This document shows positions 464-51,971 of a DNA stretch of 51,971 nucleotides, piece after piece. A program made the position numbers and the translations under genes. The stretch's first letter is position 1, and the number at the start of each line of letters is the position of its first letter. The DNA is taken from positions 2,270,343-2,322,313 of the forward strand of contig NC_057760.1 in NCBI RefSeq assembly GCF_004010195.1, read 5' to 3'. Under the pieces are notes generated by a model. That model was given only the letters and a program-made list of their open reading frames with translations, had not been told where the DNA came from and ran no database searches. The stretch comes from Chiloscyllium plagiosum. Lineage: Eukaryota.

Positions 464-624
464 CTGAAAGGGGCAGACAGAAGGTTACAAAATCTATTAA
501 CGTATCCAGAAAGGGTCCTTATTTCCATATCTGCTTTAGTATACAAATGTGTCTTTGCAGAACAGTAGACCACATCCTTTTAGTTTTAGTTCATTTTTCA
601 TATGCTGATATCCTGATCTGAGAG

Positions 625-841
625 GTGAAAGTGAGTACTGCAGATGCTGGAGATTAGAGCGGTGCAGGAAAAGCACAGCAGGTCAGGCAGCATCCAAGGA
701 GCAGGAAAATCGACGTTTCAGGCAAACACCCTTCATCATGAATAAGGGCTGATGATGGGCTTATGCTTGAAATGTCGAATTTCCTGCTCCTTGGATGCTG
801 CCTGACCTGCTGTGCTTTTCCAGCACCGCTCTAATCTTGGG
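625..841. mobile_element. Palindromic mini Penelope-derived element (family A) with two inverted hammerhead-like cores
   Basis: Inverted arms at ~651-739 and ~750-837. 14-bp TSD TCCTGATCTGAGAG at 611-624 and 842-855. Confidence 0.8.
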
Positions 842-1187
842 TCCTGATCTGAGAGCCCTCTCGTGCTTCACCTGATTCTTTCAAATGTGAATTTTTACAG
901 GTTACTTGACCTAGAGTCATGTTGCTAGATTTGATGCTCCCCTGCCAATTGAAGACAGGTTTGAAGGCAGGAGGCATATATCAAACCTAATAGATAATCT
1001 CCTTCCTGTCACCTATCCCGATCTGTCTGAAATTATGCAGCAGGTGGGAGAGATGGTGGGTAGCCCTTGGGTCTACTGAGTCCCTTAAGTGGACACTTGT
1101 ACCCACGGCTAGAGAAACCCATTCCCTGAAGGAAGTACAACAGTTTGAGCTGTTTCGACTGGTGCCAGGCAATACTGGCGGAAGACT

Positions 1188-1650
1188 AAATATAAACAGA
1201 AAGAACTGTGGATGCTGTAAATCAGAAACAAACCAGAAATTGCTGGAAAGGCTCAGCAGGCCTGGCAGTATCTATAAAGAGAAATCAGAGTTAACATTTC
1301 AGGTCCAGTGACCCTTCCTCAGAACTGATGGTAGCTAGGAAAATGTCAGTCTGTATGCAGAAGATAGGATAGGTGGGGATAGAGCCCAAAGAGAGAGAAA
1401 ATCAGTTGGATAATGATCTGGCTGGGGGAGTGAATAGCTATTAATGGAGATATTAATGGCTAACAATAGGCAGTGTGTACTGGCAGACTGTGTGATAACA
1501 AGGCCTGGTGTGTGGGGTTGGGGGCTAGGACATGGGAGAATTCAGGCCCTAAAATTATTGAACTCGATATTGAGTCCAGAGGGTTGCAGGCTGCCCAAGC
1601 GGAGAATGAGATGTTGTTCTTCCAGCCTTCGCTGAGCTTTGCTGGAACGT
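1188..1650 (-). mobile_element. Penelope-like element 3' fragment (family B)
   Basis: Minus strand 1540-1640 reads RRLEEQHLILRLGSLQPSGLNIEFNNFRA*, a PLE endonuclease C-terminus. Hammerhead-like core CTGAGGA-AGGGTC-ACTG-GACCT-GAAA at 1297-1322. Confidence 0.75.
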
Positions 1651-2392
1651 TGTGTTGGAAACACATTTACTTTCCACAAGTGCCCATTCAATTATTGATT
1701 TTCACAATCCCTGTAAAGTGGAAATGTCCAAGTCACTATCATTTCCTGCATAAAAAACATTCTTGCTCACAATCCTCCAGCAGCTTGTCTAAAACTTAAA
1801 CCCATGGTGCCCAGTGCTTGTATGAACAGCAAATGGAAATAGATGTTCCTGGTTACCTTATGAAACCTGTCATTGTCCTGTAGACCTCCATCAAGTCAAA
1901 TCTCTTCTCAATCTCTTTTGGTCTGAACAGAACAATCTCACTTTCTCTATTCCCACCTTGTTCTGTTTGGACTTGATAGGCCAAATAGCCTTCTTTTGTG
2001 CCATAATAGTTGTTTGGGCTGGACTTGCCAAGTTGCCTGTTGTCCCCCACCATCTAAAAGATCAAGGGAATCTATTCAAATTCCTGCCAACTGCCTTGCG
2101 GCACTTTTATAACCATATTGATAAATCTTCTCTGTACCCTCACAGCCTTTCCCAGAATGGGCTGACTGCACCTTTTCCAATTTCTTTTTGAAAGTATTGA
2201 TTACAATTCTGCTTACATCATCCCTGTGGGCAGCAATTTGCCTGAATCAAAATCTGGTGAGGAAACACCAGCCCTTCCCATATACATGCTTACGTTTGGA
2301 TATGACTGAGAGCTACATTAGCTGATCCTTTTGTTCTTCTGAACCTCTTGCACAAACAGAGCTGTTCTAACCACCAGAGCTTCCTGCCATAC

Positions 2393-2629
2393 CTGCAAGT
2401 GCTTTCACAATCTGTTCCGTCTTCCACTCCCAGGGCTGCTCGTACTCTGCTGCGGGGCGTTCATCATTCTCCGGCAGGCAGCTGTCGATTGGCCTGTGGT
2501 TTCCCGTCTTCTCGAGGACAGAGTTCCCAACTAACTCCTGCTTTGACCCCATTTCCGTTGGTTCATAGGGACTGTCATACAACAGGGACTGCTTCCCGAG
2601 TGGGTCCTTTGATCCTCGCCTTCGGATTT
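2393..2629 (-). CDS. SHE: SHE coding exon 3
   Basis: Acceptor atgcag|AA. Encodes (E)[23 protein letters not shown]...[28 protein letters not shown]. Donor G|GTATGG. 237 nt, phase 1 to 1. Confidence 0.95.
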
Positions 2630-48854: not shown

Positions 48855-49132
48855 CACAGTGGTTAGCACTGCTGCCTCACAGCGCCAGAGATCCGGGTTC
48901 AATTCCCGCCTCAGGCAACTGTCTGTGTGGAGTTTGCACATTCTCCCTGTGTCTGCATGGGTTTCCTCCGGGTGCTCCGGTTTCCTCCCACAGTCACAAA
49001 GATGTGCAGGTCAGGTGAATTGGCCATGCTAGATTGCCCATAGTGTTAGGTCTGGGTGGGTTGCTCTTCAGAAGATTGGTGTGGACTTGTTGGGCCGAAG
49101 GGCCTGTTTCCACGCTGTAAGTAATCTAATCT
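48855..49132 (+). mobile_element. HE1-type V-SINE within a minus-strand CR1
   Basis: CAGTGGTTAGCACTGCTGCCTCACAGC head and TAATCTAATCT tail. Confidence 0.85.
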
Positions 49133-50099
49133 ATAACTGCATGCAATCCAAGTGTGATCTCACTAAGCTCCTGAACAGATGCAGTAAGACTTTCCTTGCT
49201 CCTGTACTCAAACCCTCTTGCAATGAAGGTGAACATGCCATTTGCCTTCCTAACTGCTTGTTTCACCTGCGTGCTTGCTTTCAGTGCCTGGTTCACGCTG
49301 ACATCCAGATACTTTTGTACATCAAGACCTAGTTCTTGTCAACATACTGGAAATATTCAGTCTGATTTCCTCGTCTAAATCTTTGGAATGTACAGTGAAT
49401 AGCTGGGGCATAAGTACTGGTCATTGGGATACCCAACTTGTCATCACCTTCCGCTCTGAAAATTACTCACTTATTTATATTCTCAGTTTCCAGTCTGCTA
49501 ATCAGTTCTCAATCCATGCCAGTACATTAGCCCAATCCCACGTGATTTGATTTTGCACCACAACCTCTTGTGTGGGACATTATTGAAAGCTTTCTGAAAA
49601 TCCACATACTCCACATCCGCCAGTTCTCCCACATCCATTAACTCGTTATATCCTCAAAAACATAGGTTTTCAGGAGTCTCTTAAAGGAGGAGTGAGAAGT
49701 GAAGAGGCTTAAGGAGGGAACTGCTGGGTGGGTGTTGGAAGCATGGATGGCTGTAGGCGCAGCCACTAATGGTGCAGCGAAAGCACTAGAGGGTGCAGGC
49801 GAGGCACGTTAGAGAATGGCCAGAAGTGGTTAAAATGTTGCTAGGAGGCAGTCCTTGGAGGAATTTGAATGTGAGAATGTACATGCTAAATTAGAGATGT
49901 CAGAACCATGGAGACCACCAGTACAAACACACAATGCACCGTAGGATTGCATGTGCAAAATGGGCAGGAGAACACTGGCTCGCTTCTCTCAAAAACAAAG
50001 TGGGGATGGTGAAAGCGAAGGGGCCATTTTATAAAGCGTTGCTTCAGTCTATTTAATGGTACTTATTTCTTCCACACGCTTTGTTTTTCTCTCCTGCAG

Positions 50100-50169
50100 A
50101 AACCTTGTGTATCTCTCGGACGGTTAAAGATGGAAGTCAGATCAACTACGCGATCCCTTTAGAGATGAG
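50100..50169 (+). CDS. TDRD10: TDRD10 exon ending YAIPLEMR (gene continues right of the window)
   Basis: ctcctgcag|AA encodes TLCISRTVKDGSQINYAIPLEMR, compare recalled human FAVPLEMR. Donor AG|GTACTG. Confidence 0.85.
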
Positions 50170-51519
50170 GTACTGACGACAGTTTTCATTCTCTGCCATG
50201 CCTCCAGGTCAAAGGTTACTACTGTCAGTGGCTCAAAAGAAATTAGAGCTATGCAGGCCAGAACTTATTCCATTGTTTTGAACTGAACTCAGAGAATTGT
50301 GTCGCACAGAAAGAAGGCCATCTGGCCCATCAAACTTGTGCTGGACTTTGACGTAGTAATCCACTGAGTCCTATTCCATTCCCTCTCTTATTTTTCCCCC
50401 TACCCTGCAAAGTTTTCTTTGTAAGTGTTAACCCAGTTCTCTTTTGAAAGTTTGAAATGTTGCTGGTATTGCATCTGAAGGTTTGTGGGCACCGTGAACC
50501 CGTTACCTAAGAAAGGATATAGAGTAGATTCCTGAGGTATCAGATCTACTCTCTGTGGAGCGGTTGATGAGTTTGGGCCTCTATTGTTTGGAATTTAGAA
50601 GCATGAGAGGTGATCTAATTGAAACTCGGGGTGGGGGGAGAAGAAAGTCTTGCAGAGTGGATGCAGGAGAGGAGGGTGTCTAGACCTAGGGCAGTCTCAG
50701 ATTTAGGAGCAGGCAATTTAAAACTGATGAGGAAAGTTTTCACTTAGACAGTGGTGAATCTTTGGAATTCTCTACCCCCCAGAAAGGCTGAGGAAGCTCA
50801 ATCTTTGAACAGGTTCAAGATCAGAGATCAATCAATTCCTACACACCAGTAACATCAAAGGATGTGGGGAGAGTGCAGGGAAATGGCATTGAGGTGGATG
50901 ACAGTCATCATCTGCAGCAGTTCATTTGAATCGAGGATTACATCTGTCAAGCTGGGTGAGTTTTTGGATCACTGTGCAGTCAGTATCAGATCCACAAGTT
51001 TTTCTGCAGTGGGAGCACATAGATGCAAGAGATTTATAACCTCAGGTTGGCTTTCTGTTCTTTCCTCTGCTGCCATCATTCCACTTAGTTGAGTTGTTTC
51101 TAGGTAGTTTGTGCTTAGAGGATCAGTAGGAGCTATGTTGACAGCTTTTTGGTCCCTGTCTGTGGTAGAGGGTCGGCCATGATCTAATATAGCAGGGCAG
51201 GCTGTTTGGGCTGAATGACTGCCCCCTGTTGCTGTGTATCTATGTTTTTATGTTCCCATTGAACATTCTTCCACTTTCCCTTTGGTTAGTGTGTTTCGGA
51301 TCACAACTCGCTGCTTCAGGTTTTTTTACACGTTCTCCTGGTTACCCATCTGGTTGCTTTGTCAGTCCATTGCTTACCAAATCTTTCCACCTTAGTCAAC
51401 TGGTGCAATGATAGATCATTAGTCTATAGGAACAGAAGTAGGCTATTCAGCTCATCAAGTCAACTGTGCCATTTGATGAGACCATGGCTGATCTCTCAAT
51501 TCTCAAGGTTGAAACTTTA

Positions 51520-51971
51520 TTGCTGGAACAGCACAGCAGGTCAGGCAGCATCCAGGGAACAGGAGATTCGACGTTTCGGGCACAGGCCCTTCTTCAGGAA
51601 TGAGCAGAGAGTGTTCAGCAGGAGAAGATAAAAGGTAGGGAGGAGGGACTTGGAGGAGGGGAGTTGGAAATGTGATAGGTGGAAAGAGGTCAAGGTGAGG
51701 GTGATAGGTCGGAGTAGGATGGAGGCGGAGAGGTCAACAAGAAGACTGCAGGTCAGGAAGGCGGTGCCAGGCGGGAGGGATTCGGCTGAGACAAGGGGGG
51801 GGGAGGGGGATGAAGAAACTGGTGAAGTCCAAGTTCATCCCCTGCGGTTGGAGGGTTCCCAGTCGGAAGATAAGACGCTCCTCCTCCGACCGTCGGGTTG
51901 TTGTGGTTTGGCGGTGGATGAGTCCAATGACCTGCATATCCTCGGTGGAGTGGGAGGAGGAGTTGAAATGC
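51520..51971 (-). mobile_element. Penelope-like element 3' end (runs off the window)
   Basis: RRSEEERLIFRLGTLQPQGMN endonuclease C-terminus, followed by a family A terminus. Confidence 0.88.
51566..51601 (-). ncRNA. Intact minimal type I hammerhead ribozyme
   Basis: ATTC-CTGAAGA-A-GGGC-CTGT-GCCC-GAAA-C-GTC-GAAT. Perfect 4-bp helix I and 4-bp helix II, GUC cleavage triplet. Confidence 0.8.

Follow-up and report, generated by a model that had tools for sequence, protein, structure and literature searches.

We analyzed a 51,971-nt stretch of the genome of the shark Chiloscyllium plagiosum (the window, meaning this stretch at its full length), in which 16 sites carry a hammerhead ribozyme core, CTGANGA-hairpin-GAAA, in intact or decayed form. 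These motifs are almost certainly minimal type I hammerheads located in the pseudo-long terminal repeat (pLTR) ends of several families of Penelope-like elements (PLEs). As an explanation of the whole, we consider it likely that they are decaying PLE-pLTR stubs, that is, run-off copies of uncleaved RNA whose 5΄ end was probably at helix I. The pairing of minimal hammerhead ribozymes (min-HHRs) with PLEs has already been published, and these motifs open no new class.

A sequence-only reading of the window had claimed hammerhead cores at 16 sites, and all 16 were found, the positions given there being mostly the low end of each motif. The sites are nevertheless not 16 independent or functional ribozymes. 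Because the motifs at 713/749 and at 17812/17857 are the two arms of one insertion each, with target-site duplications (TSDs) of 14 and 16 bp, and the stub at 3008 is nested within the family C insertion carrying the motif at 3110, the 16 motifs represent at most 14 insertions. A motif was called strict if it had the exact core CUGANGA / GAAA and a fully paired helix II, and complete if it had the core, helix II, the palindrome, NUH and helix I. The window contains nine strict motifs, versus none in each of 12 dinucleotide shuffles, and the palindrome is kept in only three of these nine. Only 3 of the 16 motifs are complete, with C3 (position 0 in our numbering, in which the cut follows +27) at 3037, 20580 and 51597, all on the minus strand; the remaining 13 are damaged by mutation of the core, 16.1 or the palindrome, or by loss of the 5΄ helix I strand. 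Hammerhead_1, the Rfam model proposed for detecting them, would miss these motifs, since no Rfam hammerhead match was obtained in the window at either the gathering or the E<=5 threshold; the Rfam miRNA matches in the window correspond to the inverted arms of insertions. The motifs and the PLE remnants associated with them are as follows.

708..743, minus strand: family A motif, C3 mutated; tail-bearing arm of an inverted insertion (~625-841) with TSD TCCTGATCTGAGAG at 611 and 842.
745..780, plus strand: family A motif, intact core, broken palindrome, 5΄ strand of helix I missing; the arm without a tail in the ~625-841 insertion.
1289..1326, minus strand: family B motif with helix I AGTT/AACT and helix II GGGTC/GACCT; CpG decay has broken the palindrome.
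1551-1625, minus strand: PLE C-terminal remnant (tblastn E=6e-6); the 1289..1326 motif lies 3΄ of it.
3006..3041, minus strand: family A motif, complete; stub 2911-3045 within a family C element, TSD TCCAACAG at 2903 and 3056.
3107..3141, plus strand: family C motif with mutated G12; one of the arms of an inverted insertion of this family (~2866-3229).
8864..8895, minus strand: family A motif, C3 and G12 mutated; stub inside a CR1-type reverse transcriptase (RT) fragment.
9888..9919, plus strand: family A motif, C3 and 10.1 mutated.
17808..17843, minus strand: family A motif, mutated at G5 and G12; the arm of an inverted insertion that bears the tail, TSD GACTGGGATTCAAAGC at 17694 and 17917.
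17853..17884, plus strand: family A motif, intact core, U16.1 missing and followed by a deletion; other arm of the 17808..17843 insertion.
19221..19262, plus strand: family B motif, decayed helix II.
20549..20584, minus strand: family A motif (TTTT loop), complete; insertion 20457-20664, sense to the host intron, TSD GCTAGTTTGAGGT at 20444 and 20665.
27832..27863, plus strand: family A motif, C3 and G12 mutated.
29806..29843, minus strand: family B motif, U16.1 mutated but core and helix II intact; forms one arm of an inverted pair.
31025..31060, minus strand: family A motif, intact core but broken palindrome (ACAT), with part of a second core immediately upstream (~31064-31090).
41652..41687, minus strand: family A motif, U16.1 mutated; 3΄ pLTR of a long PLE remnant.
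41560..43264, minus strand: broken Neptune-type PLE with RT core, CX4CxxC linker, GIY-YIG, C-terminus, 3΄ untranslated region (UTR), hammerhead and tail (tblastn E=3e-88 to the L047 open reading frame).
51566..51601, minus strand: family A motif (CTGT loop), complete, with a helix I of 4 bp (ATTC/GAAT); the cut is predicted to fall between 51570 and 51569.
51507..51971, minus strand: inverted tail-less arm of a young PLE insertion running past the window end, TSD TCTCAATTCTCAA at 51494-51506 and after the far arm.

Two further decayed PLE ends lie outside this list, a family B-related stub at 47950-48023 (plus strand) and an inverted family C pair lacking the core at 8567-8700.

The architecture of the motifs follows the type I scheme in reduced form. 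The core letters are invariant in 16 hand-picked aligned representatives of families A, B, C and a fourth family, D. Helix I differs between families by paired changes (ATTC/GAAT, AGTT/AACT, AGCT/AGCT, CAC/GTG and TCA/TGA), and helix II varies between families in both sequence and length with its pairing retained. The tetramer in place of helix III stays palindromic, as the sequence-only reading had noted, being ACGT in families A, B and D and AGCT in family C. All four families have an extra base after A9 and a G10.1-C11.1 pair, seen for family A in columns 9.1, 10.1 and 11.1 of 305 copies, the in-register subset of 459 anchored ones. Some details of that reading required revision. Its helix II covariation holds between families; within family A the stem is constant (GGGC/GCCC) and the loop alone changes; GGGC-TTAA-GTCC is a single-copy mutation. 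The family C stem, given there as GAGC-AGT-GCTC, is longer than proposed (5 bp, GGAGC/GCTCC). The cleavage triplet, taken to be uniformly GUC, is GUC in family A, GUU in family B and CUA in family C.

Within family A, the differences between subfamilies in the 305 copies are confined to N7, loop 2, position 1.3 and the flanks; 0 of 26 constrained columns vary, compared with 12 of 54 free columns (Fisher p=0.007). Together with the fixed core of the 16 representatives, this is the pattern expected if the source elements were selected for the ribozyme fold. CpG loss occurs at similar rates in G12, the palindrome and the cut site (69, 77 and 55 of the 305 copies), indicating that inserted copies decay neutrally.

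The link to PLEs, also made by the sequence-only reading, is borne out by RT, linker and GIY-YIG remnants upstream of the motifs and by the minimal type I architecture, which fits that described by Cervera and De la Pena (PMC4209133). Family A and C motifs lie directly 3΄ of a Neptune-type RT, a CX4CxxC linker and a YIGET/CCHH endonuclease; the linker before YIGET reads CHHKKCKTC in family A (locus L040) and CHGRRCKTC in family C (loci L202 and L205). The motif at 41659 is preceded by a broken open reading frame (ORF) encoding the RT core, a CX4CxxC linker, a YTGET endonuclease and the PLE C-terminus. Among related genomic copies, two of the four proteins scanned gave a Pfam RVT_1 match (E=9e-8) and a weak, sub-threshold GIY-YIG match (E=0.016). 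Family B follows the PLE C-terminus at 1551-1625, a remnant too short to include the linker, which was not seen for this family. Family D, found in genomic samples and without a member in the window, has a Poseidon-like endonuclease. The putative assignment of families A and C to the Neptune clade rests on the CX2-5CxxC linker motif. In family A the ORF starts ~38 nt after the tail, and its ORF-start motif has 2,246 exact copies in the genome.

The very large genome-wide load that had been predicted from the window was supported by two approaches. First, exact pattern matches numbered 151,549 for family A, 25,083 for family C, 2,864 for B-like and 3,453 for family D (182,949 summed), with 0, 0, 1 and 0 matches, respectively, for the control patterns of A, C, B-like and D; one 31-mer alone occurs 15,704 times. 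Second, we sampled 140 stretches at fixed coordinates (1.37 Mb without N) and found 112 strict motifs, compared with 3 in the reversed control, from which we extrapolated ~283,000 strict motifs genome-wide (bootstrap 241,000-342,000), or one per 12 kb. The sample contained 47 complete motifs (~one per 29 kb), corresponding to ~122,000 in the genome. The window is not typical, being about twice as dense as the genome average (nine strict motifs versus 4.2 expected, P=0.03), but the large load still holds. Published counts are ~9,000 min-HHRs in Xenopus and ~4,000 in coelacanth (PMC4209133); for axolotl, the figure is 126,247 canonical type I motifs (PMC7229834). The load here exceeds those that we found, in a comparison that is rough because the descriptors differ. 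A literature search returned no report of shark hammerhead ribozymes among the portions of text available; tandem retrozymes were counted in one chondrichthyan in a preprint (10.64898/2026.07.22.740005) whose supplements may be relevant to how novel the present count is. One candidate report (PMC6155905) was discarded, the word hammerhead there denoting a shape. Such an extreme load would mean that most large shark genes likely carry intronic sense-strand hammerheads, and it implies that monomers are nearly inert in vivo.

The insertions show TSDs, inverted arms and one-sided tails. For example, the motif at 51566 lies in the inverted arm of a young insertion whose partner arm (L005:3983-4452), 3.9 kb away, is 97% identical and carries the tail, with a 13-bp TSD. 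The combination of RT, linker and C-terminal GIY-YIG with 5΄ truncation, inverted arms, tails and TSDs is the described anatomy of endonuclease-containing (EN+) PLEs (PMC8557442, PMC3846280). At inverted junctions, an arm that ends near -4 is often fused to a GAAN word of the partner at +2, +5 or +28; the -3..+7 region is quasi-palindromic, and the junctions exploit its microhomologies. In inverted insertions L249-L260, the arms are joined exactly in helix I register, and the 2.3-1.3 mismatch is resolved toward either arm. A 44-bp tandem array derived from the family A pLTR segment just after the cut site was also observed (L151:2300-2760, minus strand). A run resembling a branch point, pyrimidine tract and AG terminates the family A tail (L209:1480-1500), and TTTATCTCTCAG occurs 20-40 nt upstream of the hammerhead in many subfamilies (L030, L031, L033) and is absent from the CTGT subfamily; both are possible splice acceptors.

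Elsewhere in the genome, a 224-bp tandem unit (L238:1308-1886, plus strand, and 39 other places) comprises the pLTR from -18, an intact CTGT-loop hammerhead, the tail and the first 78 nt beyond it, repeated two to three or more times in a row. The same exact junction is found at all 40 places, on many chromosomes. This unit is retrozyme-like and a natural dimer substrate. At the ORF-start loci L207-L236, ~24 of 30 join the ORF start, within a few hundred bases, to the 3΄ UTR or hammerhead, forming short partial tandems that suggest an RT jumping back onto the protein-bound part of the RNA.

These units raise the question of whether the short copies form a non-autonomous element in their own right, similar to a SINE or a retrozyme, that spread via its own small or circular RNA. 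The intact hammerhead and single junction of the 224-bp unit, the ORF-start loci joined straight to the 3΄ end and the retrozymes reported in one chondrichthyan (10.64898/2026.07.22.740005) would fit such an element. The stubs in the window, however, have ragged 5΄ ends and match different autonomous subfamilies, none of the 16 motifs lies in a same-strand tandem of complete units, and the stubs end before the ORF-proximal region that the anole PLE needs for template use (PMC11167929). We therefore regard this explanation as quite unlikely and retain that of truncated PLE copies.

To locate where copies begin, breakpoints were scored in families A, C and D from an anchor downstream of the ribozyme, so that the core itself was not selected for. 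For family A, 251 hits were reduced to 197 by removing 13 at N or edges, 12 from one tandem-array region and 29 family B cross-hits. The starts are piled up at the hammerhead: 115 of 197 fall in -11..+12, compared with 3 in -35..-12 and 28 in +13..+36, and the per-base hazard is 0.052 in -11..+12 versus 0.003-0.012 elsewhere. The same interval holds 18 of 22 starts of TSD-validated simple insertions and 41 of 96 family C starts. The stubs are mostly 90-130 bases long, with a 5΄ edge at the first base of helix I. This edge falls in an initiator-like word (TCATTCC and TCAGTTC fit the initiator consensus) in families A and B, and less so in C and D. No PLE 5΄-end pile at the hammerhead is described in the available portions of the literature searched, although palindromic junctions and solo pLTRs are (PMC8557442, PMC3846280).

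An apparent second peak at +28..+33 was considered as a footprint of cleaved templates and rejected. It shrank after removal of the 12 tandem-array hits and 29 family B cross-hits, and 9 of 36 ends were still on +28..+30 (p=0.002, unadjusted, with internal deletions and clipped alignments included). Genome-wide, exact junction matches numbered 153 at +28, 62 at +32 and 36 at +24, and TCAG precedes the junction in ~42 of the 100 listed +28 matches. Ten of 12 such TCAG loci checked scored as inverted hammerhead arms joined via helix I complementarity, and an 11th differs by a one-base insertion; the same cDNA end also joins at +2, +5 and +9. Three of eight other +28 loci resemble simple insertions starting at +28. 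The peak thus provides no firm evidence for cleaved templates. Since most sampled family A copies start at -11..+12 and there is no firm peak at the cut site, templates were mostly uncleaved; that their 5΄ end was at helix I has, in our estimation, about an even chance.

The pile could instead have been made at integration, the stubs still deriving from PLEs, by an RT pause after the hammerhead, a nick at ATT, or a join made where the sequence first becomes AT-rich and self-complementary. ATT is the word preferred by the endonuclease of the anole PLE (PMC11167929), the family A edge has CATTC with a minor cluster at CATTT (-39: 4/197), the quasi-palindrome and its microhomologies lie at the edge, and a pile of read starts was not seen in the RNA run described below. 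By contrast, the family C pile is at the same relative place despite a non-ATT sequence and an AT-rich upstream region, and a structural stall is expected 3΄ of the fold, yet breakpoints are infrequent there (hazard 0.005 per nt at +13..+27, against 0.052 at -11..+12). Integration as the origin of the pile is possible, although we lean away from it.

In the scheme that we favor, self-cleavage of the source transcripts would be likely only as dimers or with the protein of the element. By analogy with the anole PLE, for which internal priming at the tail was shown in vitro (PMC11167929), the PLE protein would nick the target DNA and prime reverse transcription internally at the tail (~+92 or ~+125 from C3). 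If priming is internal and RNA downstream of the tail is needed, a linear RNA can yield only short run-off cDNA: one starting just upstream of the hammerhead would be copied for ~130 nt to its end, leaving a solo stub with a TSD. If both nicked strands prime, the cDNA end at ~-4 may anneal to any partner GAAN word, giving head-to-head arms. Long copies would need tandem or circular templates, where ribozyme cleavage may matter, and the genomic stubs would be passengers.

Several observations weigh against this account. Most family A subfamilies, including the commonest, have a mismatched helix I pair 2.3-1.3, and for cleavage both U17 (family B) and A17 (family C) are unfavorable letters. The 5΄ edge is fuzzy in family A, with 30 of 197 copies mapping at -5 to -11, and extends to -12 to -19 in family C; family D (19 copies) shows no real pile, its five hits at -2 reflecting a reference mismatch. 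No intact full-length element or ORF was recovered, many young copies having internal N. Folding of nine monomers gave z-scores of 0.05 to -2.1, no better than shuffles in eight of nine, with nothing beyond helix II, and in cofolding the dimeric hammerhead was never the minimum-energy dimer; the energy models, in our view, speak neither for nor against activity. RNA reads came from one informative same-species polyA single-cell run, in which both strands were represented (a second run gave none). In favor of the account, reads clip at the ribozyme edge and continue into unrelated sequence (51601: 89 loose ends, agreement 0.39); against it, no pile of read starts was present at -4 or at the cut site in this run, the library type of which may not reveal one. 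Finally, Drosophila Penelope starts ~120 nt upstream of helix I, across an intron ending at helix I (PMC2377424, PMC4209133), so that the shark arrangement would differ.

With respect to activity, published min-HHRs are inactive as monomers and have low activity as dimers (PMC4209133), and the anole PLE hammerhead cleaves only with the protein of the element and obeys C3/G8 rescue, unprocessed RNA being the main template in vitro (PMC11167929). By analogy, the shark motifs are probably cleavage-competent in a dimeric or protein-assisted form. Alternatively, the motif might be a protein-binding or promoter element derived from a hammerhead, with cleavage lost. The weak helix I, the poor N17 in two families, the initiator-like words, the RNA reads without cleavage ends and the unimpaired insertion of anole PLE hammerhead mutants in vitro (PMC11167929) are consistent with such a loss. 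It is nevertheless improbable, as the catalytic letters are conserved exactly while N7 and loop 2 vary and the stems change compensatorily across four families, and the anole motif does cleave (PMC11167929).

A bolder extension of the favored scheme is that the hammerhead caps the RNA: transcription would start at helix I base 1, linear RNA would give ~130-nt copies, and the ORF would be copied only after two terminal hammerheads cut and the RNA circularizes or a tandem is read. We put this forward tentatively and think it rather unlikely. If it were true, the ~280,000 stubs would form a fossil map of 5΄ ends, and the ribozyme would switch transposition between stubs and full-length copies, in a genome denser in hammerheads than any other of which we found a record. 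As to the role of PLE hammerheads, the breakpoint pile predicts capped 5΄ ends near -4, and the 224-bp tandems offer ready dimer substrates.

The window also contains a minus-strand host gene, which we take to be SHE (SH2 adaptor), together with other repeats:

24734-25906, 21021-21287 and 2370-2699, minus strand: SHE-like exons, the first with a long Lys/Gly/Pro-rich repeat insertion.
3627-7975: GC-rich minisatellite of 4.3 kb, 29-bp period, ~150 copies, with long minus-strand open frames.
8711-9754 (plus strand) and 12354-12794 (minus strand): CR1-type long interspersed element RT fragments (Pfam RVT_1); the stub at 8866 lies where the first of them begins.
32231-33315: complex tandem repeat with periods of 43, 59 and 145 bp, upstream of the host gene.
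43480-43842, plus strand: weak RRM-like match below the Pfam cut-off, adjoining the PLE remnant.

The complete copies at 20580 and 3037 are intronic, sense to this gene and have a common ACGU palindrome, as might be seen if some copies were domesticated ribozymes processing the host pre-mRNA. Nevertheless, 13 of the 16 motifs are broken, both orientations occur in the gene (seven sense cores and five antisense), and complete copies are expected by chance at the sampled density. Domestication is accordingly very improbable.

The motifs closely resemble the min-HHRs of metazoan PLE pLTRs described by Cervera and De la Pena (2014, PMC4209133) in their type I core, the unpaired base between 9 and 10.1, the G10.1-C11.1 pair, the short helix I, the palindromic 15.2-16.2 replacing helix III, and the occurrence of several consensus families per genome, mostly as single truncated copies with some opposite-strand pairs. 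No shark is named in the available part of that paper. Unlike its set, the numbers here reach ~280,000 strict and ~120,000 complete motifs (with different descriptors), and the family A helix II is only 4 bp. The elements themselves resemble Neptune-clade EN+ PLEs (Craig et al. 2021, PMC8557442; Arkhipova et al. 2013, PMC3846280) in their RT, CX2-5CxxC linker and C-terminal GIY-YIG, and in their 5΄ truncation, inverted 5΄ arm with a palindromic junction, 30-40-bp one-sided tail, TSDs and solo pLTRs. In rotifers and flies, however, pLTRs measure ~190-220 bp or more and the promoter lies upstream (PMC8557442, PMC3846280), whereas most copies here stop at helix I. As in Anolis Poseidon PAc (Frangieh et al. 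2024, PMC11167929), the hammerhead lies ~90-125 nt upstream of two 3΄ end points (the tail), uncleaved RNA appears to serve as template, and the cut site is without reads; the PAc ORF begins inside the hammerhead, whereas that of family A begins after the tail. Animal non-LTR retrozymes (PMC7229834; 10.64898/2026.07.22.740005) likewise have PLE-derived type I hammerheads at very high copy number, but they consist of tandem units, their hammerheads are canonical and their circular RNAs abundant, in contrast to the dispersed, minimal and truncated motifs of the window. At least two consecutive tandem units, each with a complete hammerhead, the retrozyme definition of the preprint, are absent from the window and are found elsewhere in this genome in the 224-bp unit.

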